A stretch of 20,000 nucleotides of DNA from NCBI GenBank assembly GCA_003697105.1, contig RFFQ01000113.1, positions 45,378 to 65,377 on the forward strand, in the 5' to 3' direction. Source of the DNA: Gemmatimonadota bacterium. Its GTDB lineage: Bacteria > 4572-55 > J002. The notes under the pieces are model-generated. The model ran no database searches. It was not told the DNA's origin and was given only the letters and a program-made list of their open reading frames with translations. Of the stretch, positions 1,429 through 20,000 are shown piece after piece. Numbering within the stretch: position 1 is the stretch's first letter; every line of letters begins with the position of its first letter. Position numbers and translations under genes: made by a program.

Positions 1429-3018
1429 TCATCCTTTTTGTGATGTCATGGTGGTAATGGTGGTAAATGTGCCGGTCAATATGGCTTGGGTACTTGGGGC
1501 AAATTGCAGACTGGGATGAACGGTACAGGGGATGGCGCGAAACCGTTCCTGCCACTGTGGATCCGGATGTTTGCGAATTTGGGCGCAAAATTGCTCGATT
1601 TCTGGATTATTCGCCCGGCGAATCTCCACGCCATCAAAATCGAATATCGTTTTAATCTTCAACCAGTTTACCTCTGCCCGGGTGCCGTTGATCACAAGGG
1701 TTTTTTCTTGTTGTTCATCCAACACGGCGATGATGGTGTGAATACCGTGTAGGAGCGGTTCGATCTGCTTGCACCGGTTGCAGTAATAAATGTCTCCCGT
1801 AAACCAGCGGTTCAGCGGGACCTTTTCGTGAGTGACCCGGGTGAAGCAATCGCGGCACATCAGTGTATTGGGGGTGCGGCAAAGGGGTTTGCACTGCCGG
1901 ACTAAGGCACAGGCGGCCGCAGATTTCACTTTAGGGTCGGAATCCCGCAAGCGCCGGTAAAGGCGTTCAAAGGCGTGCGGCACAGGTTGTTTTGCCAGTT
2001 GTTTGCAGGCACTTACCCGGTGGGAGGGTTCTTTACTGTTGAGCTGGCGGATCAGACGTTGCTGTTGGTGTTGCACCTCGCTTTTTACCGGTGAAATGGG
2101 GAACACCCGTTGTTGATTTTCCGCTTCCTGTTCGCGCCAGGCGTAATATTCCACGTGCCCAAATTTTTGTTGGAGTTGTTCCACTTGGGATGGTGCCAAC
2201 TTGCACTGATCATCTACAAAGCAGACCATTTGGGGATAACGCTGGGTGCGAATCCGGTCGGTATCGGATTGAAGCTGGTTGATGAAGGCGTCGATCTGAT
2301 TTCCGCGGGCACGCAGAATTTCAACCCGTTCGATCTCGCCTAGGCTTGATTGAAGTAATCCATTGATTCTAAACTGGTTGTCGGTTTGAGCGGTTCGTTT
2401 TTTCCAGCGTTGGTCTAGCACCCAGACGATCTCACCGGCGGCTTTGATCACCGTCCGGCTTTGCCGGCACGAGCGGCAGGCGATGAATTGAAAGGTGGTT
2501 TTGTGGCCGCTTAACGTCTGCTTGCTCAAGCGCGTTAGGCAGTTTTGGCAGAGGTACTGTTCTGTATTATCACCAAATTCCTGTAGGGTGTACTGGCAAA
2601 TGGATTGAACCAACCAGTTTGCTGTTGCCCAATGAGGATGATCCGGGTTTGTCACCAGTGGCGTTAAGGCGGTGAATGTTTCGCTACCTAGTTGGGTGAT
2701 GGCGTATGCCGCCACGAGCCGGGTGATCCAATCGGAGTCATCCAAATCCGTAAGGTACTTGGTCACCGGCGAAAGTTTATTTAGGCTGTTTATTCGATCT
2801 TTAAGGCGCTTTAACCATCTGATTTTAAAATGATTATCTTCACCGGCGTCGAAAAGTATGGGCAGTGTTTCAGAAAGCGGCGGGCGGTGATGCCAGCACT
2901 CTGGCTGGGGTCGTTTGCGTGTTCGTTTGGGGTCATTAATGATTTTGACCAGGTGGCTGGCATACTCTCGATCCGGAGTAAATTGCCATTCGCGAGCCAG
3001 AATATCGAGTTTATTCAT
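1429..3018 (-). CDS. Hypothetical protein with two tandem copies of [HEAT-like repeats + C4 zinc ribbon + alpha/beta domain]
   Basis: 529-aa ORF overlapping the rsmB-like stop by 8 nt; HEAT-like LDDSDWITRLVAAYAI, LNSKEPSHRVSACKQL and LRDSDPKVKSAAACAL; CxxC-x20/21-CxxC twice. Confidence 0.8.
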   Translation of the reverse strand: MNKLDILAREWQFTPDREYASHLVKIINDPKRTRKRPQPECWHHRPPLSETLPILFDAGEDNHFKIRWLKRLKDRINSLNKLSPVTKYLTDLDDSDWITRLVAAYAITQLGSETFTALTPLVTNPDHPHWATANWLVQSICQYTLQEFGDNTEQYLCQNCLTRLSKQTLSGHKTTFQFIACRSCRQSRTVIKAAGEIVWVLDQRWKKRTAQTDNQFRINGLLQSSLGEIERVEILRARGNQIDAFINQLQSDTDRIRTQRYPQMVCFVDDQCKLAPSQVEQLQQKFGHVEYYAWREQEAENQQRVFPISPVKSEVQHQQQRLIRQLNSKEPSHRVSACKQLAKQPVPHAFERLYRRLRDSDPKVKSAAACALVRQCKPLCRTPNTLMCRDCFTRVTHEKVPLNRWFTGDIYYCNRCKQIEPLLHGIHTIIAVLDEQQEKTLVINGTRAEVNWLKIKTIFDFDGVEIRRANNPEIEQFCAQIRKHPDPQWQERFRAIPCTVHPSLQFAPSTQAILTGTFTTITTMTSQKG

Positions 3019-11819: not shown

Positions 11820-11950
11820 TGATAAAACCCCATCCATTTTCCATGATTGGGCTATTGTGGATGCCTTGAAAAGGTTGTATATTGGGCGTCCACTCTAGCG
11901 AATCCATTTTGCGATCTCTATCACAACATTTTTATGGCAAACTCGGGCTT

Positions 11951-13750
11951 ATGATTTCTCCCTATTTTCAATATAAAGATTTTATGCAACAGCATTATGG
12001 TACTCAACTTCACCGGATTCCACTGGATATGGGTGATAGTTGTCCCAATCGCCTGCCGGATGGCTCCGGGGGGTGTACGTTTTGTAATCTGCGGGGCAGT
12101 AGAGCGATTCAAACCCTCGGTTATGAAACGGTTTATGAGCAAGTTGATGCCGCTATCCGCTTTGCCCAGAGACGCTACCGGGCGACCCAATTTATCGCTT
12201 ATATTCAGGCGTTTTCGGCGACTTTTGGGGCGAAGCGGCAACAGCAATATCTGGATTTGCTTTCCCGCTTCCCTTTTAGAGCGGTAGTCTTTGGCACCCG
12301 GCCGGATTATTTAACCCGATCCGCTTATGCTTTTTTGCAACAGCTTAATGAGTCGCTTGAAGTGTGGGTGGAGCTTGGTGTGCAGACCGTCCATGATCGC
12401 ACTCTCCGGCGGATTAATCGGGGCCATGATTGGAGCGCCAGTGAACGGGCTATCCAGAAGCTACATGACACCGGTCTTCGGGTTGCCGTCCACGTGATTT
12501 TGGGGTTGCCCGGCGAAACTCCCGAAGACTTCCAATATACTGCCAATACCCTGGCGTCACTGCCGATTTCTGGGGTGAAAATCCACAATCTGCATATCGA
12601 AAAAGGTACGACTCTCGCTAAAGAACATGCGCTTACGCCGGTGCCTACCTTGATGGAATATGAATACGCCGAACATCTCATGGATTTTATCCGGCGGATG
12701 CCGCCAGACATCCCCATTATGCGTATCCATACGGACACGTTGCCGGAAGAACTCATTGCGCCCAAATGGCATATGGATACCCAACAGTTTAAGGCGTATG
12801 TAATTCGTCAAATGGTGTATCGTCAGTGGCGGCAAGGTGATTTATACCGCCATGGCTCGCCCTCTATGCCCATTGATCCTGAACCACCCGCGCCGGTCGC
12901 TACGGCGGATGGCTCCATTACCTTCTGGAGTGCCGATTATAAAGAACATTACCACGCAGCCGTCGGTGCGCGAACCGAAGCGTTGGAGAAGTTTATCCGG
13001 CCTTCTAACTTAATCGACCGATTAAAAAAAGGGGATGTCCGGTTGCTGGATGTTTGCTTCGGGTTAGGGTATAACAGTTTAATGGCGCTGGATGTGGCTC
13101 TTGCCACCAATGGTAAAGAACCGCTCCATGCGTTGGAGATTGTGGCGTTAGAAATGGATAAACGGGTGGTGCAAGCGGCGAGTCAGGCGCTTATCCCCTT
13201 AGAGACGGATTCATTTTGTTGGCAAACGGCTTTGCACGACCTTGTAACCCACGGTCACTGCACCGTAAGCCCGTCGGCTTCCATTGATATACGCTGGGGC
13301 GATGCACGTTTTACCGCTTCTCAACTTCAACCCCATAGCATTGATATTATCTATCTGGATGCGTTTTCGACACAGCGGAACAGTGAACTCTGGACGGTTG
13401 ATTTTTTCCGACAGTTACGAAATCTGATGAAAGCGGATGGCGTTCTGATTACGTATTGCGCGGCGATTCCGGTGCGAAGCGGTCTTCTTGCCGCGGGTTT
13501 TCAGGTGGGAGAAACACCGCCGGTGGGGCGAGACCGGGGCGGAACTATCGCCGCCATCCAAGCGAACCATATTCCGCGACCTCTTCCGGCGAATGATCGT
13601 CATCTCATCGAGCACACGACCCGCGGGATTCCCTACCGCGACCCGTATGGCGTCTGGACAAATACGGAAATCTTAAGGCACCGGGAAGCGGAGATTTTAA
13701 AGTATAAGCAGGCTCGTGCATCGAACAGAATCGGGGCGGAGGTTTCATGA
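11951..13750 (+). CDS. Fusion of a TIGR01212 (YhcC/YtqA-MnmL type) radical SAM domain and an MnmD/MnmC2-type tRNA mnm5(s2)U34 methyltransferase domain
   Basis: N-half CPNRLPDGSGGCTFC, GTRPD, VWVELGVQTVHDRTLRRINRGH, HVILGLPGE, GVKIHNLHI; Pro-rich linker; C-half TADGS-x-T...EHYH...GA, LDVCFGLGYN, LDAFS...ELWT, TYCAA. Start set at ATG 11951 from typical family length. Confidence 0.88.
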   Translation: MISPYFQYKDFMQQHYGTQLHRIPLDMGDSCPNRLPDGSGGCTFCNLRGSRAIQTLGYETVYEQVDAAIRFAQRRYRATQFIAYIQAFSATFGAKRQQQYLDLLSRFPFRAVVFGTRPDYLTRSAYAFLQQLNESLEVWVELGVQTVHDRTLRRINRGHDWSASERAIQKLHDTGLRVAVHVILGLPGETPEDFQYTANTLASLPISGVKIHNLHIEKGTTLAKEHALTPVPTLMEYEYAEHLMDFIRRMPPDIPIMRIHTDTLPEELIAPKWHMDTQQFKAYVIRQMVYRQWRQGDLYRHGSPSMPIDPEPPAPVATADGSITFWSADYKEHYHAAVGARTEALEKFIRPSNLIDRLKKGDVRLLDVCFGLGYNSLMALDVALATNGKEPLHALEIVALEMDKRVVQAASQALIPLETDSFCWQTALHDLVTHGHCTVSPSASIDIRWGDARFTASQLQPHSIDIIYLDAFSTQRNSELWTVDFFRQLRNLMKADGVLITYCAAIPVRSGLLAAGFQVGETPPVGRDRGGTIAAIQANHIPRPLPANDRHLIEHTTRGIPYRDPYGVWTNTEILRHREAEILKYKQARASNRIGAEVS

Positions 13751-14712
13751 CAACGGCGACCTCATTTTGGATTGTGGCCCCCCAAACCGGCCAATTTCGC
13801 TCAGAATCGTTGCCCCCTTTAGCCCCAAATGAGGTGGGTGTACGCACCCTATATAGCGGGATTAGTCGCGGTACCGAACGGTTGGTTTTTAAGGGCGATG
13901 TACCGGTTTCCCAATATCCGGTTATGCGGGCACCATTTATGGCAGGAGAATTTCCTTTTCCGGTTAAGTACGGCTATTGTAACGTGGGAGTGGTAGTGGA
14001 AGGTGTCCCAGCATGGCAGGGAGCACGGGTATTTAGCTTGTTTCCACATCAGGATTATTTTCATCTTCGCACAGATGATCTGCTGCGTATCCCGGAGACG
14101 GTACCCTCCGAGCGAGCCGTTTTGGCGGCAAATATGGAGACTGCACTAAACAGCATTTGGGATAGCGACCTGCGGATTGGCGACCGGGTTGCCGTCATCG
14201 GTGCCGGGGTGGTGGGGTGCTTAATTGCCTATCTTGCCGCCCAAATTCCAGCGGTCAATGTGACCCTGATCGATACATATCCGCCACGGCAGACCATTGC
14301 CGATCACTTGAACATCCCATTTCAAACACCGGATCAGGTGCAGAGCGAGTTTGACCGAATTTTTCACGCCAGCGGCCATCCGGCAGGGTTACAAACGGCG
14401 TTACAGTGGGCGGCACCAGAAGCGCAAATTATCGAAGCGAGTTGGTTTGGAGATACAGAAGTGTGTTTACCCCTTGGGGAGGCATTTCACTCCCGGCGGT
14501 TGCAGGTTATTGGTTCGCAAGTGGGATCGGTTGCCATCTCTCGCCGGACACGATATACTTCCCGGCAACGCTTGGCATTAGCACTCTCACTTCTCGCGGA
14601 TGACCGGCTGGACGCGTTGTTCACGGATCGTATTGCCTTTGCGGATTTACCGGAGCAGTATCCCCGCTTGTTGAATGCCGCGTCCGTACTGGGCATCATT
14701 GTGAAATATTAG
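13747..14712 (+). CDS. MDR-superfamily (alcohol dehydrogenase-like) oxidoreductase
   Basis: GroES-like N-domain YSGISRGTE...FPVKYGYCNVG; Rossmann VAVIGAGVVG; ATGA overlap with the upstream gene. Confidence 0.85.
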   Translation: MTTATSFWIVAPQTGQFRSESLPPLAPNEVGVRTLYSGISRGTERLVFKGDVPVSQYPVMRAPFMAGEFPFPVKYGYCNVGVVVEGVPAWQGARVFSLFPHQDYFHLRTDDLLRIPETVPSERAVLAANMETALNSIWDSDLRIGDRVAVIGAGVVGCLIAYLAAQIPAVNVTLIDTYPPRQTIADHLNIPFQTPDQVQSEFDRIFHASGHPAGLQTALQWAAPEAQIIEASWFGDTEVCLPLGEAFHSRRLQVIGSQVGSVAISRRTRYTSRQRLALALSLLADDRLDALFTDRIAFADLPEQYPRLLNAASVLGIIVKY

Positions 14713-14718
14713 GGATAT

Positions 14719-14766
14719 GAGTTGGGGAGTTTAGGAGTTTGGGAGTTTAGAAGTTAGGGAGTTAAA
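14719..14766 (+). repeat. Degenerate 8-bp tandem repeat, six units, consensus GAGTTTRG
   Basis: GAGTTGGG GAGTTTAG GAGTTTGG GAGTTTAG AAGTTAGG GAGTTAAA fills the intergenic gap up to the ATG. Confidence 0.85.
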
Positions 14767-17700
14767 TGGATATATCAAAGCAGATCGAACAGTGGCAACA
14801 CCAGCCGGGGATAGAAACGGCAGTTGGCTTATTGGAAGCAATGGAAACAACGCCGGTGCAAGTTGAACTTGCTCCCAGTTGCCTTCGGCTTACCGGTAAA
14901 AGTGATTTTTTACGAAACCTGCCGCAATATGAGTTACGGTTGCGTTGGGCACAAACGGCTTTACGCTGGATTCGAGAAACTCCGTTTAAATTGGTCGATT
15001 TATTCACAATGCGGGTAAAAGAATACCCAAACCGGGTATTGTTTCAGGAGATGCGCGGTACGATGCCGCACTACTGGACGTATCGCCAAGTTGATCGGAT
15101 GGTGAAGGAGATTGCCACAGCGTTCTATACGGTTGTACCGGCGTCTCCGCGGGTCGCGATTTTTGCGGAAAACTGTCTTGGTGGGGCATGTGCAGACCTC
15201 GCCTGCCTGTTTTATGATATTTTAGATACACCGCTCAATATTCATTTTGATGATGAGACCTTGCTCGATATTTTGGATCGGTTGCAGATTAACATTGTGG
15301 TGACCGATACAGAGAGCCGTTGCCGCCGCTTGGAGAATCTCCGGCGAAAGACTGCCCGTCCTTTTGTAGTATTCGTTGTTCAACGGCAGATCAAGCTTCA
15401 TGAAAATGATACCTATTTTTTGGACGAATATTGTAAGCATTTAAGCCAGGAGCAGATCGACACCCAGCTGGCAAACCGTCCCCGCCGGGATTTGCGCGAT
15501 GTTGCGACCGTGATGTTCACTTCGGGAAGTACCGGTAAACCCAAAGGGATTGCCTTTTCGGAGTACCACTTGGTCAGCAAACGTTTTTGTCGTGCCGCGG
15601 CTTTGCCCAAAGTGGGGGATAACGAGGTGTTACTCTGCTATTTACCGCTTTTCCATACGTTTGGGCGATATTTGGAAATGCTGGGCACGATCTATTGGGG
15701 GGGTACGTATGTTTTTACCACGAATACTTCTGCTGAGAATCTGCTCTCCTTGTTCCCGCAGGTCAACCCAACCGGGTTTATCAGTGTGCCGATCCGGTGG
15801 GTCCAGTTATACGAAAAATGTTTGAAAAAGATAAAACATGAAACCGATTTGCAGGCGGTACAACTAGCCGTTCGTTCCGTGATCGGACACCGGTTGCGGT
15901 GGGGGCTTTCCGCCGCGGGGTATCTTGACCCCAAAATCTTCCGTTTTTTCCAGCGGAATGGCGTGGATTTATGTAGCGGGTTTGGTATGACGGAAGCCAC
16001 CGGCGGCATTACCATGACACCGCCCGGTAATTATGTGGAAAATGCCGTGGGGATTGCCTTACCGGGTATCGATATCCGGTTAACGGATAACGGCGAAATG
16101 CAGATCAGTGGGCATTACATCGCCCGGTATTTAGATGATTTGCCGAGTGCCAGTGCCGCGATCCCCTATCCAGAGGAGGAGGTGTACTGGCTCTCGACCG
16201 GTGATCTGTTTCAAGTGACCCCCGAAGGTTTTTACCAGATTATTGACCGCACAAAAGATATTTACAAAAATAACAAAGGGCAAACGGTCGCTCCGGTCAA
16301 AATGGAGAAAAAATTTACCGGAGTCCCGGGAATTAAACGGACCTTTTTAGTCGGGGATGGCAAACCGTACAATGTCCTCTTCATTGTACCGGACGAAACA
16401 AGCGACTTCATGCAGAAATTTCGCACGGAAGAGAGCCGCCGAGAGTATTTTCAACAATTGATTACCACCGCGAATCAAAAATTGGCGCCGTATGAACGGG
16501 TAATCAATTTTGCCATTTTAGACCGGGATTTTGATCTCAAACGGGGGGAACTGACCCCCAAAGGTTCGTTCAATCGCAAAATCATCGTGGCGCATTTTAG
16601 CCACTTAATCGATGAACTTTATCAGCGTGAATATGTAGAATTGGCGTGCGATGAGGTCTGTGTGCGGATTCCACGCTGGTTTTTCCGGGATCAAGGTATG
16701 TTAGAAGGGAGTATCTCCATCTCTCGCATGGGGTTGCACAATTTGACGACCGGTAAAATGTTACCTTTAAAACGGGTGGCGGAGTCGGGTACAACTCTTA
16801 TTGGGGATTTAGAATATACGGTCACGAATGGCGTCATTGACTTAGGGCTATTTTCCCGCCAACCCCGCCTCTGGGTCGGAAATCCGGCACTGATCGCATT
16901 TTGCATCTGTAAAGAGGGCTGGGATGTACCGCTGGATGGGGTTTCGGCGCACCTTTTTCGTCCGTGGGAGATTGCCCGGCAATATGACCCAACGGAGTTA
17001 CCAGTACCGCAAAAAGTGCGGGATGCCGAGTTGCTTCGCATCAATCGGCTGGTCTGTACGGCAATTTTGGGTCCTACGGAACTGGCGTATTCAGCGTTGG
17101 AAGAACTTAGTACGGCGTTAACAGAGGTTGATAGCCGTTTAGGTGATGTCATCCGCCGCCGGTTGGAAACCTTAGCCCGCCACCCAGACGAAGATATCCG
17201 CTGTTTCGCGTATCAAATTTTGTTACTCGATGAGCCGGTCTCCAATTACAACCTAGCTTTTCCGGCATTTATGCAATCTGGCTTATCTTTTCTCAATAAA
17301 AAATCGATAGAAAATATTGCCTTTGGTAAGATGGAAAAAAAGCGGCTGGAAGCGCTTCGCCAGCGGCTGTTTAGTTACCGGATGCAACTAAATTGGCCCC
17401 TCAATGAGAGCATGCGCCAACAGTTTGAGCGCATCTTCCAACTGCTGGTCAGTTTTGTGGACCAACATCCGGAATTTTACCATCCCTTGCGGGCAGAACT
17501 GGCAAGTTGGGTTCTCCACCGCAACGACCGGGCTTTGGCTGAGATTGCAGAACGGTATTTTAATGAATTGTATCAGGTTTATCAGAGCAAGTTTGAGGGC
17601 GACCTCGATACTTACCAGCAGGCAGATTGGGACGAAAAAATTGTATTTGATGATGGTTTGGTGGCGGATGAAATTCAGCGCATAAAAGCCGTTTTCCGGG

Positions 17701-19400
17701 CGGCGCCGTTCCTCAAACATTCCGTGATGCTCGCATTTGATGAACGCCAATTTCATCTGGCAGATGTCCCGCCGGGTGGAATTTGGGTCTCGCGGGTAGA
17801 ATCGGGACATTATCGTGACCAATACCGGGTCTGTATTAATACCATCCATGACGCCCATTTTGATCTACAACTCGTACTCAGCGACGACCTCGATCAAGCG
17901 ATGACCAAAGAATCCGTTTACTGGCATGTGGCGATCAGCGGGTATCCTTACGGGCAATCGGTGTTACCGCGAATGGGGTGTTTTGATACCGGAAGTGGCG
18001 CTTTGGCAACACGTTATACCGGCGAACTGAGCGTGTGGGAGAAAATCCGCGAGTTTTCCAGTGCTCGTATCCCCGGCAAGACGTTTCCGGGACTCAATGC
18101 GTGGCGAAAGTTGTTTATTCAAGCCTTAGCCGGATTTTATCGCGGCTGGCACAATAGCGGCTTTCAGATTGTGCCGGGCGTCATCTCGCCCAATAACATT
18201 GCCGTACCGGAACTCGATTTTTTGGAAAGTTCCACGATCTTGTCCATGATCGGCTGGCAAGAGTACACCAACACGCTTTCCCTCATTAAACCGATGCTGC
18301 AAAACTTCTACTTCAAGACGGTCGCTCACTATCCCTGGTGCAAAGATGATTTGCATGTGGATTGGATATTTGATGCCTGCCAAGAAGCGTTAGGACGGGA
18401 GCCGGCGCAGGAATTTTTCGCCCAACTCCAGACGGAACTCAGCGGGGAACGGCTGGTATGGCTGGATGGTACGCCATTGGGACAATGCCTAGAGCGGTAT
18501 CTCAAGGATAACGAGGATTTCTATTACCTGCCCCTTGCCGTCCGCAAAGCCATTGAGTGGTACAAAACGTGGGAAAAAACGAATGAGGCAATTCACTCCA
18601 CTGCCCGGAAAGAAGTGGTGTTGGAAGTGTACCGACTTTACCGGATCCATCGCTTCCCTGAAATCAATCGCTACTACTTGTACCGGTACACCTATTTTTC
18701 ACCGATGAATGACAAAGTCCATCAGGCGTTTGACCAGCTTCTTCAAGCCATGCAACGAGAACCTCAAAAACCGGCGATTGAGTTCTTGGAACTCTCTGAC
18801 CTGCAAAGTACCTTAACCCGTAATGAAGACCGCGATGTGTTCAGCCAGATGGTCTTCCCCCATGAGACGCCCCATAAATTTGATGTTCTCAAAATTGGAG
18901 ATAGCGACCACAAACAAATTTTAGTGCATTCGTATATCACCGACCGGTATGGGGAAACGTATGTCTTCCGACGACCCACTGAACCGGCCGAAATTGGCCA
19001 ATTTTACCAGTTATATTTCCCCGAAGTTATCTCAGAGCAAGACCGGCATTACATTGTGATCGACTCGCAGGAACGCGTGGTCGGTGGGATTCGTTATAAA
19101 TTGATGGAAGACCATATTGCCCAAATTGACCGAACCATCGTTTCCGCCACTCTGCGCGGACGGGGTTTGGGTCAAGCGATGGTGGAAAGTTTCTGCCGGC
19201 GGATGGAAAGTCAAGGAGTTCAACTGATCAAAACGCACTTCTTTTTACACAACTTTTATGAAAACTGTGGGTTTGTGGTCGATCACCAATGGGGTGTTCT
19301 GGTGAAGATACTGGTGCCCCAACCGGACAAATTAACTACCGAAGATTATCTCGATACCACCATAGCTGAGGATGGTGAGACGAAACCTATACGGGTTTAA
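14766..19400 (+). CDS. 1544-aa multidomain protein: long-chain acyl-CoA synthetase-like AMP-binding domain, uncharacterised helical and kinase-like middle, C-terminal GNAT
   Basis: FTSGSTGKPKG, YLPLFHTFG, GFGMTE, TGD, IDRTKD...KGQTVAP, GELTP in aa about 70-620; V-x-x-x-LRGRGLG and FYENCGF near the C-terminus; one uninterrupted ORF. Confidence 0.88.
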   Translation: MDISKQIEQWQHQPGIETAVGLLEAMETTPVQVELAPSCLRLTGKSDFLRNLPQYELRLRWAQTALRWIRETPFKLVDLFTMRVKEYPNRVLFQEMRGTMPHYWTYRQVDRMVKEIATAFYTVVPASPRVAIFAENCLGGACADLACLFYDILDTPLNIHFDDETLLDILDRLQINIVVTDTESRCRRLENLRRKTARPFVVFVVQRQIKLHENDTYFLDEYCKHLSQEQIDTQLANRPRRDLRDVATVMFTSGSTGKPKGIAFSEYHLVSKRFCRAAALPKVGDNEVLLCYLPLFHTFGRYLEMLGTIYWGGTYVFTTNTSAENLLSLFPQVNPTGFISVPIRWVQLYEKCLKKIKHETDLQAVQLAVRSVIGHRLRWGLSAAGYLDPKIFRFFQRNGVDLCSGFGMTEATGGITMTPPGNYVENAVGIALPGIDIRLTDNGEMQISGHYIARYLDDLPSASAAIPYPEEEVYWLSTGDLFQVTPEGFYQIIDRTKDIYKNNKGQTVAPVKMEKKFTGVPGIKRTFLVGDGKPYNVLFIVPDETSDFMQKFRTEESRREYFQQLITTANQKLAPYERVINFAILDRDFDLKRGELTPKGSFNRKIIVAHFSHLIDELYQREYVELACDEVCVRIPRWFFRDQGMLEGSISISRMGLHNLTTGKMLPLKRVAESGTTLIGDLEYTVTNGVIDLGLFSRQPRLWVGNPALIAFCICKEGWDVPLDGVSAHLFRPWEIARQYDPTELPVPQKVRDAELLRINRLVCTAILGPTELAYSALEELSTALTEVDSRLGDVIRRRLETLARHPDEDIRCFAYQILLLDEPVSNYNLAFPAFMQSGLSFLNKKSIENIAFGKMEKKRLEALRQRLFSYRMQLNWPLNESMRQQFERIFQLLVSFVDQHPEFYHPLRAELASWVLHRNDRALAEIAERYFNELYQVYQSKFEGDLDTYQQADWDEKIVFDDGLVADEIQRIKAVFRAAPFLKHSVMLAFDERQFHLADVPPGGIWVSRVESGHYRDQYRVCINTIHDAHFDLQLVLSDDLDQAMTKESVYWHVAISGYPYGQSVLPRMGCFDTGSGALATRYTGELSVWEKIREFSSARIPGKTFPGLNAWRKLFIQALAGFYRGWHNSGFQIVPGVISPNNIAVPELDFLESSTILSMIGWQEYTNTLSLIKPMLQNFYFKTVAHYPWCKDDLHVDWIFDACQEALGREPAQEFFAQLQTELSGERLVWLDGTPLGQCLERYLKDNEDFYYLPLAVRKAIEWYKTWEKTNEAIHSTARKEVVLEVYRLYRIHRFPEINRYYLYRYTYFSPMNDKVHQAFDQLLQAMQREPQKPAIEFLELSDLQSTLTRNEDRDVFSQMVFPHETPHKFDVLKIGDSDHKQILVHSYITDRYGETYVFRRPTEPAEIGQFYQLYFPEVISEQDRHYIVIDSQERVVGGIRYKLMEDHIAQIDRTIVSATLRGRGLGQAMVESFCRRMESQGVQLIKTHFFLHNFYENCGFVVDHQWGVLVKILVPQPDKLTTEDYLDTTIAEDGETKPIRV

Positions 19401-19577
19401 CCGCTTTATTTGCCATAACTTGCCTGCTTTTCAGGCGTTGCGATGATTCTGATGGCTGGTGGACTTGTCCCGGGCTTGGTGATGAAATCATTCCGTCTAT
19501 TATATGGCGTATCCAACCGGATTCAAACTCGTGACTTATCTTATCTTATTTTTTTGAAACCCCGGTAAAAGTTGGTC

Positions 19578-19606
19578 TTGATTTTTTTTGATCTCTGTGT
19601 TATTAT
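19578..19606 (+). promoter_or_regulatory. Candidate sigma70 promoter (extended -10) for the Calx-beta gene
   Basis: TTGATT-N17-TATTAT with TG-n before the -10; AT-rich context. Confidence 0.55.
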
Positions 19607-19736
19607 GATTGCTATCAATCCGCGATTTTTGCATTCTGCACTGCTCACCCCCCCCTCGTATAAATCTAAAAATCCAATATGTTTTTTCAAATCGTTCCTC
19701 TTCTATTTATCTTTCTTCCAATATAAGGAGGCAGGT

Positions 19737-20000
19737 ATGTCAACTTCTAGGTTTTCATTTATATTCGTAGTCGCTCTGTTGCTGGGGCTATTTGGCTTTT
19801 CACAGGTTCAGGCAGTATCATCAGCGTCACTTTCCATTGCGGATAGTAGCGCCGTTGAGGATTCTGGTACGCTAAGTTTTCGGGTGACGCTTAGTGCGGC
19901 GGTTGCTGGTGGGGTAACTGTTAATTACAACACCACTTACGGGACGGCGACCTCCGGTGATTTTACGCCGGTTAGTAATGGTGTGCTGACGTTTAGTCCT
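19737..20000 (+). CDS. Secreted/surface protein with signal peptide and Calx-beta domain (3' truncated by the window edge)
   Basis: TAAGGAGG SD then ATG; MSTSRFSFIFVVALLLGLFGFSQVQA signal peptide; LSIADSSAVEDSGTLSFRVTLS...VTVNYNTTYGTATSGDF...GVLTFSP matches the Calx-beta pattern; open to the window end. Confidence 0.85.
   Translation, partial: MSTSRFSFIFVVALLLGLFGFSQVQAVSSASLSIADSSAVEDSGTLSFRVTLSAAVAGGVTVNYNTTYGTATSGDFTPVSNGVLTFSP

Follow-up and report, generated by a model that had tools for sequence, protein, structure and literature searches.

What occupies the middle of a 1544-residue protein that begins as an acyl-CoA ligase and ends as an acetyltransferase, and could it derive from a protein kinase? 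The question is raised by an open reading frame (ORF) in the window analysed here, a stretch of 20,000 nucleotides from a Gemmatimonadota contig (RFFQ01000113.1). About 780 of the 1544 residues of its product are unannotated. A preliminary description placed within them, at 17775-18420 (amino acids, aa, 1004-1218), an apparent protein-kinase-like domain that had lost its catalytic residues. The comparisons reported below make a kinase-like origin probable. The explanation towards which we lean is that aa ~1004-1260, probably together with a helical stretch up to aa ~1365, form a very diverged module of pseudokinase type that serves or regulates the adjacent GNAT acetyltransferase domain. On this reading, the family would represent a known fold in a new, strongly diverged form and in a new architecture.

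Resemblance to kinase-like families

Translation of the ORF recovered all the motifs quoted in the preliminary description, in the order that it gave: GGIWVSRV (1004-1011), YRVCINT (1020-1026), HFDLQLV (1031-1037), VLPRMGCF (1066-1073), the hinge-like ALATRYTGELSVWEKI (1079-1094), the long helix WRKLFIQALAGFYRGWHNSG (1113-1132) and IVPGVISPNNIAV, which lies exactly at 18168-18206. These motifs are conserved across more than 300 homologues and belong to a large family with a broad distribution. With aa 640-1400 as the query, 371 of 8000 scored candidates were homologues at E ≤ 1e-3; among the 120 matches listed, identities range from 41 to 54%, most proteins are 1500-1570 aa long, and the ligase and GNAT Pfam domains are the same as in the window protein. 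Of the stretches matched in a pattern scan, tblastn confirmed relatives in 460 of 599 from one-genome-per-species contigs and in 433 of 694 from metagenome contigs. According to the record titles, one of which names Draconibacterium orientale, the hosts include Bacteroidota, Acidobacteriota, KSB1, Fibrobacteres, Gemmatimonadota, Krumholzibacteriota, Latescibacterota, Myxococcota and Gammaproteobacteria.

The family alignment comprises 321 sequences, 282 from the main clade, which is that of the window protein, and 39 from a divergent sister clade of ~1600-aa proteins; the core compared is aa 998-1259. Members of the sister clade read ADPSPENIIVPxHDYxxGxRIVSIS at the catalytic-loop equivalent and EEFIPGETV at the hinge. 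The region aa 960-1400 is of nearly constant length (432-447 aa across 69 loci), and in an alignment of 70 main-clade sequences over this region (A2) the sole invariant column is N1144, with P1137, G1138, P1142 and D1151 conserved in at least 90%. A profile search of 1.84 billion representative sequences returned 319 proteins at E ≤ 1e-3, and the 150 of them listed are all members of the ligase–GNAT family or pieces thereof. A stand-alone form of the module was considered for 17 shorter proteins (242-772 aa) and rejected, all of them being C-terminal pieces of the same ligase–GNAT architecture. Because the listed matches and the short proteins all belong to one family, the module appears to be essentially confined to this architecture. 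A literature search found, among the papers listed, nothing on the combination of ligase, kinase-like module and GNAT.

The kinase assignment is supported by local profile–profile comparison with hhalign. The comparison profiles were built from 17 Pkinase domains of the host's own genome and from 12 ABC1, 26 APH and 6 Kdo proteins. The family matched Pkinase with a probability of 64.6% (P 6.3e-5) over 129 columns, Pkinase columns 9-141 lying on aa 1008-1150, and the comparison in the other direction gave 43.9% (P 2.4e-4). Weaker matches were obtained to ABC1 (17.9%, P 1.3e-3), APH (14.1%, P 2e-3) and Kdo (3.9%, P 0.011). The Pkinase, ABC1 and Kdo alignments all stop at the catalytic loop in one register; by default the APH alignment takes in the N-lobe and hinge, in that same register, and the catalytic loop is reached with the C-lobe alone. 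All 45 controls scored lower than the Pkinase match: three reversed comparisons gave at most 0.7%, 24 block-shuffled comparisons (eight shuffles against three kinase profiles) a maximum of 14.6%, and 18 comparisons of six other regions of the protein with three kinase profiles at most 3.9%. When the catalytic loop was removed, the N-lobe and hinge held the register (P 0.008), and the catalytic loop taken alone gave P 6.5e-4.

Two further lines of evidence point in the same direction. First, when kinase-like segments of the host's own genome were ranked with the family hidden Markov model (HMM), 8 of 19 lay above the 95th percentile of 2960 background segments (Mann–Whitney U test, p 1e-9), as against 1-3 of 19 (p 0.004-0.63) with control HMMs from four other regions of the protein. 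The top local match fell at the hinge or catalytic loop, in register, for 13 of the 19 segments. Second, an Atlas language-model feature search with aa 998-1260 against named clusters gave 30 matches, which serve as a lead only: 16 were DUF6206, 8 had no common family, and the remaining 6 were ABC1/RIO1, APH (2), Kdo, Pkinase/RIO1/ABC1 and YrbL, with scores of 0.92-0.95. Judged by these sequence comparisons, the kinase resemblance exceeds chance in the tests run.

Could the region instead be an unrelated alpha+beta domain, in which strings resembling a hinge and a catalytic loop arose by chance or convergence? A series of results speaks for this alternative and against a kinase relationship, first among them that every curated-library and HMMER search was negative. 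No kinase-like family was found in Pfam with the window protein, nor any kinase family with 70 main-clade members (E ≤ 10) or 26 divergent members (E ≤ 5). Against PDB sequences, both the protein and the family profile gave noise only and no kinase, and none occurs among the 150 listed matches of the 1.84-billion-representative search. A genome search with the ABC1 model left the window's contig without a match, and A2, run against the own genome at E ≤ 10, retrieved nothing beyond the gene itself. The best profile–profile probability is just 64.6%, far below the 95-99% that true kinase-like families reach against each other in the same set-up. The main-clade alignment alone gave 22.3% with Pkinase and 0.5% with ABC1, and A2 aligned to ABC1 at 0.26%; the kinase signal emerged only when the divergent clade and more sequences were added. 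Block shuffles that left a short motif intact still reached up to the 14.6% given above. Kinase segments also scored slightly high with an unrelated GNAT control HMM (p 0.004). Moreover, the region was picked beforehand for its kinase-like look, which inflates the apparent significance.

Residue covariation cuts both ways. Direct-coupling analysis (DCA; mean-field and per-site pseudolikelihood, effective number of sequences ~240) gave hairpins 1008-1020, 1019-1035 and 1025-1031, that is, a three-stranded meander (beta1-beta2-beta3) followed by a helix, and a helix-strand pair 1055-1070. Residues 1163/1164 within the motif ILSMIGW paired with 1050, 1063, 1068 and 1078, in the presumed alphaC, beta4 and beta5, and the long helix and the catalytic loop are coupled to helix 1170-1187 (pairs 1121-1177/1182 and 1140-1177). 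Helix-helix pairs in the C-terminal part are 1121-1177, 1170-1224 and 1203-1245, and a crude secondary-structure estimate gives a strand-rich start and a helix-rich end. Set against the canonical kinase fold, the meander and the helix packing are compatible with a kinase, not decisive for one. By the same yardstick the pairs 1008-1127, 1033-1113 and 1024-1120 misfit a canonical kinase, since links from N-terminal strands to helix 1113-1132 are not expected there, and they too favour an unrelated domain.

Several observations nevertheless speak against an unrelated domain. Two or more separate blocks contribute to the signal, in the correct order and with the correct spacing, and four kinase-like families share one register. 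The sister clade carries the canonical Glu, Asp, Asn and Asp at the aligned columns, the language-model neighbours are kinase-like families, and the rank test separated the family HMM from its controls. An unrelated domain is fairly unlikely. The relationship put forward in the preliminary description stands as far as the common hhalign register, the rank test in the own genome and the language-model neighbours go, and lacks any curated-library match. Among the profile searches, those with Pfam, NCBIfam, PDB sequences and HMMER produced no kinase, and hhalign produced the Pkinase match.

Catalytic positions and the question of activity

In the Pkinase register, P1137 takes the place of the catalytic-loop His, G1138 that of the Arg, V1139 that of the Asp (of the HRD motif), P1142 that of the Pro and N1144 that of the Asn. 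The replacement of His and Asp by Pro and Val, which had been read from the window protein, is borne out by this alignment and extends to its relatives: the main clade has A71 L36 I34 S26 V18 at column 1139, with Asp outside the top five. In the divergent clade, 18 of 39 sequences have Asp there, so that the alignment of homologues, also suggested in the preliminary description, recovers the catalytic Asp in part of one clade and outside the commonest residues of the other.

The N-lobe positions are likewise degraded. There is no conserved Gly in the Gly-rich loop, where column 1014 is F/Y/S/R/L. In column 1035, that of the beta3 Lys, the main clade has Q/H/L/E/R and the divergent clade A/V/S, Lys being among the commonest residues in neither. 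At the alphaC Glu column (1050), 198 of 282 main-clade sequences have Thr and 47 have Ser, and 31 of 39 divergent sequences have Glu; the neighbouring column 1049 is Glu in 146 of the 282. The hinge Glu column (1083) is variable in the main clade and Glu in 33 of 39 divergent sequences. By these alignments, three features on which phosphate transfer depends, namely the Gly-rich loop, the beta3 Lys and the catalytic Asp, would be missing from the window's clade. Canonical residues become scarcer from the divergent to the main clade, a pattern to be expected if the family descends from a working kinase-like ancestor, with the caveat that the alignment was itself shaped in part by the divergent sequences.

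The presumed metal-binding positions tell a different story. N1144, the catalytic-loop Asn, is present in 277 of 282 main-clade and 26 of 39 divergent sequences and is invariant in A2 and in another alignment, A1. D1151 is Asp in 259 of 282 and 36 of 39, and column 1152 is F or Y in 270 of 282 and 33 of 39. Both extended hhalign alignments place D1151-F1152 on the DFG motif with a six-residue deletion, in their low-confidence part. In ILSMIGW, by contrast, conservation in the main clade concerns S1160 (244/282), G1163 (252/282) and W1164 (220/282), and column 1162 is A/T/S with no acidic residue. The preliminary description had looked for the DFG motif in ILSMIGW and concluded that its Asp was missing. 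That conclusion is doubtful, because the near-invariant D1151-F1152 is what the alignments, with low confidence, place on DFG and because column 1162 is non-acidic. Its further suggestion that the domain is catalytically dead is not established either, since the Asn and D1151 are both kept. In addition, the window's clade has a conserved polar set of its own, consisting of R1021, H1031, D1033, S1131, S1160 and E1207, of which R1021 is found in 276 of 282 main-clade and 34 of 39 divergent sequences.

These residues leave room for an active enzyme with a kinase-like fold and non-canonical chemistry, either a SelO- or SidJ-like transferase of nucleotidyl or acyl-adenylate groups, or a kinase acting on small molecules. 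N1144 and D1151 would hold the metal, and R1021, H1031 and D1033 would replace the lost Lys and Asp. No polar residues are better conserved in the two clades together than these presumed metal ligands, the conservation of R1021 fits the proposal, and the fusion partner performs adenylate chemistry. Precedents are SelO, an AMPylase without the HRD Asp but with the Lys, the Asn and DFG/DYG, according to a review (PMC12599244), and SidJ, a kinase-fold glutamylase (PMC6858067). It is because SelO, having lost the HRD Asp but kept the Asn and the Asp of DFG, has a different chemistry that an active enzyme stays a rival here. However, neither clade has glycines in the Gly-rich loop or Lys at the beta3 column, and the absence of the Asn from 13 of 39 divergent sequences, together with the variable Asp at the catalytic position, suggests relaxed catalytic constraint. 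An active enzyme seems improbable to us.

Proposed role, protein layout and surroundings

Returning to a pseudokinase-type module, its place directly upstream of the GNAT would suit a ligand-binding or docking function. Through the ligand or partner domain that it binds, the module would regulate or position the neighbouring GNAT. That enzyme might in turn modify the cis-fused ligase by acetylating its catalytic Lys, or draw on the acyl-CoA that the ligase produces. A sensor or docking role is the most likely one by analogy, judging from the position before the GNAT and from the classification of Pat acetyltransferases considered below; the nucleotide sensor or scaffold suggested in the preliminary description is likewise an inference. 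Covariation between module and GNAT includes two strong pairs, 1306/1439 (z 9.5) and 1070/1511 (z 8.5), the other inter-domain pairs being scattered with no clear interface. A more ambitious version, which we regard as speculative and distinctly unlikely, would see here an unrecognised kinase-fold clade spanning phyla, with the pseudokinase as the coupling device of a self-contained machine made of ligase, sensor and acetyltransferase. N1144 and D1151 would then hold a ligand that carries an adenine nucleotide (ATP/AMP, acyl-AMP or, in acyl-CoA, the ADP moiety), and in this way the module would gate cis-acylation of the ligase's catalytic Lys, or pass the ligase's acyl-CoA on to the GNAT. If the module is a kinase-fold derivative at all, the range of bacterial pseudokinases would extend to a clade invisible to HMM-based kinome surveys, and the protein would offer a one-polypeptide model for the coupling or self-regulation of acyl-CoA synthesis and N-acylation/acetylation.

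Table 1. Position of the ligase–GNAT gene in the window and of the segments distinguished in its product
Feature	Residues (aa)	Window coordinates	Strand	Description or basis
ORF	1544 in all	14766..19400	+	Acyl-AMP/CoA ligase, then ~780 unannotated aa, then GNAT
AMP-forming (ANL) ligase	82-622	15009..16631	+	Pfam and core motifs
Unannotated conserved region	623-997	16632..17756	+	Second half resembles helical repeats (HEAT-like)
Putative kinase-like N-lobe, hinge, long helix and catalytic-loop equivalent	1004-1150	17775..18215	+	hhalign to kinase profiles
Putative catalytic-loop equivalent IVPGVISPNNIAV	1135-1147	18168..18206	+	P1137 for His, V1139 for catalytic Asp, N1144 for metal-binding Asn
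Candidate DFG equivalent D1151-F1152	1151-1152	18216..18221	+	Extended hhalign alignments, low-confidence part
ILSMIGW	1158-1164	18237..18257	+	Family consensus I-x-S-L-x-G-W
Remainder of conserved module, mostly helical	~1165-1365	18258..18860	+	Conservation, DCA helix pairs, crude periodicity analysis
GNAT acetyltransferase domain	1402-1503	18969..19274	+	Pfam Acetyltransf_1, E 5.9e-11

The segments of the protein are listed in Table 1. The two flanking enzymes are as the preliminary description had them, and both retain their core motifs. In the ligase, Pfam finds AMP-binding at aa 82-446 (E 1.3e-49) and AMP-binding_C_3 at 504-622 (E 6.2e-12), and the core motifs are TSGSTGKPKG (252-261), GFGMTEATGG (405-414), STGD (477-480), DRTKDIYK (494-501) and TPKGSFNRK (597-605). 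An ANL ligase is thereby recognised from its AMP-binding domain, its C-terminal domain and its core motifs including the C-terminal Lys motif, and the motif columns are almost invariant across A1. NCBIfam gives ligase families only, all under the cut-off, with long-chain-fatty-acid--CoA ligase as the top model. The GNAT domain scores 43.1 bits with Acetyltransf_1 against a cut-off of 20.7 and has the R/Q-x-x-G-x-G/A acetyl-CoA loop as RGRGLGQ at 1464-1470; the closest solved sequence is that of Tetrahymena GCN5 (E 2.4e-4). Between the two enzymes, no Pfam family lies above its cut-off in aa 623-1400, and neither Pfam nor NCBIfam matched aa 623-997. Weak HEAT/HEAT_2 matches occur in 3 of 26 divergent homologues at the place equivalent to aa ~790-960 (window ~17130-17650), and in the window protein this stretch has a sub-threshold match to the Pfam family TetR_C_10.

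The surroundings of the gene are not conserved: the neighbours seen in the window recur in 0-1 of 80 loci, no flanking family is present in more than 13 of 80, and orientation varies. Directly upstream on the same strand, at 11882-13750 (+), lies a gene whose 622-aa fusion product joins a radical SAM domain (with Radical_SAM_C) to a Methyltransf_30 domain of MnmC type. It shares 4 nt with the gene at 13747-14712 (+), whose product of 321 aa has weak FAD/NAD(P)-binding matches. A functional link of the radical SAM fusion to the ligase–GNAT gene is unlikely, because a homologue of the fusion is found near that gene in just 1 of 80 loci. Farther away, a 529-aa HEAT-repeat protein is encoded at 1429-3018 (-) between rlmN-like and rsmB-like rRNA methyltransferase genes. 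Downstream, an open-ended ORF with a weak Calx-beta match begins 172 nt after the ligase–GNAT gene, at 19572-20000 (+). The genome itself has a GC content of 48.5%. Pkinase domains are matched 17 times in it at E ≤ 1e-30, including two matches within one 2393-aa open frame (contig C88:11338-15666, -). Among 30 relative genomes, 2 share its class and the rest share the taxonomic domain only; the host lineage is therefore thinly sampled.

Comparison with known systems

The closest comparison is with the protein-kinase-like superfamily as a whole, represented by Pkinase (PF00069), ABC1/UbiB (PF03109), APH (PF01636) and Kdo (PF06293), with which the module aligns collinearly at the profile–profile level. 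The order of elements is also the same: a strand meander, a helix, two strands, a hinge (x-Y-x-G-E-L-T/S), a long helix, x-x-P-x-N-V-V-V and D-F. Unlike members of this superfamily, the module gives no HMMER-level matches and is embedded in a ligase–GNAT polypeptide, and in the window's clade it has neither a Gly-rich loop nor the beta3 Lys nor the catalytic Asp. In Ser/Thr kinases the Asn and Asp are 13 residues apart, whereas the spacing in the module is 7 residues. APH-type enzymes have a short link into a helix and no long activation loop, an arrangement that the DF/GW region of the module recalls. A GNAT and an APH-type kinase-fold domain are reportedly joined, both active, in the bifunctional resistance enzyme AAC(6')-Ie/APH(2'')-Ia, where, however, the domain order is said to be reversed and there is no ligase.

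DUF6206 (PF19709) is the commonest language-model neighbour of the module, with 12 of 30 and 16 of 30 matches in two feature searches. It was rejected as a relative, profile–profile comparison with the ligase–GNAT family giving only 0.14-2.2%, and, in contrast to the module, it is a stand-alone protein of ~270-330 aa. DUF6206 proteins have kinase-like strings of their own, G-Y-G-E-I-S-T, A-F-K-R, I-D-G-Q-I-S-N-W and Y-I-D-V-S-T-P (L101:1435-2379 -, L102:1276-2307 +, L103:1495-2313 +). An alignment of 11 sequences matched the Pkinase profile by hhalign at 15% (P 0.0017, 135 columns), and a PDB sequence search with DUF6206 gave no match. The family could be a kinase-like one that has so far escaped recognition.

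Bacterial pseudokinase families covered in the review cited above comprise ActPs1-3, GLW, CP1, DYD and DLHK, in addition to SidJ, EssB and SelO (PMC12599244). The review nowhere mentions GNAT, acetyltransferase, AMP-binding or acyl-CoA. Among these families, the pseudokinase domain of MviN (ActPs3) has degraded catalytic motifs and a shortened activation loop, lies within a multidomain protein and is presumed to act as a scaffold or regulator (PMC12599244). The module resembles it in the loss of canonical motifs, the short activation loop and the setting inside a larger multidomain protein. ActPs3 is actinobacterial, membrane-linked and recognisably related to Ser/Thr kinases, whereas the module is far more diverged, is distributed over many phyla and shares its polypeptide with a ligase and a GNAT. 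With SelO the module shares the loss of the HRD Asp, the retention of the Asn and of what may be the DFG Asp, and a link to adenylate chemistry; it differs in that the beta3 Lys, kept in SelO, is missing from the ligase–GNAT family.

Finally, the type III Pat acetyltransferases offer a parallel for the architecture. According to PMC8556138, these enzymes have a 300-400-aa sensor domain that precedes the GNAT and controls it by binding cAMP, NADP or amino acids, and the classic Pat targets are AMP-forming acyl-CoA synthetases. A kinase-like sensor is not among the types listed there, and fusion of the ligase to the acetyltransferase sets the window's protein apart. The two nevertheless agree in layout, the module being a ~370-aa region directly N-terminal to a C-terminal GNAT, with an AMP-forming ligase provided in cis.

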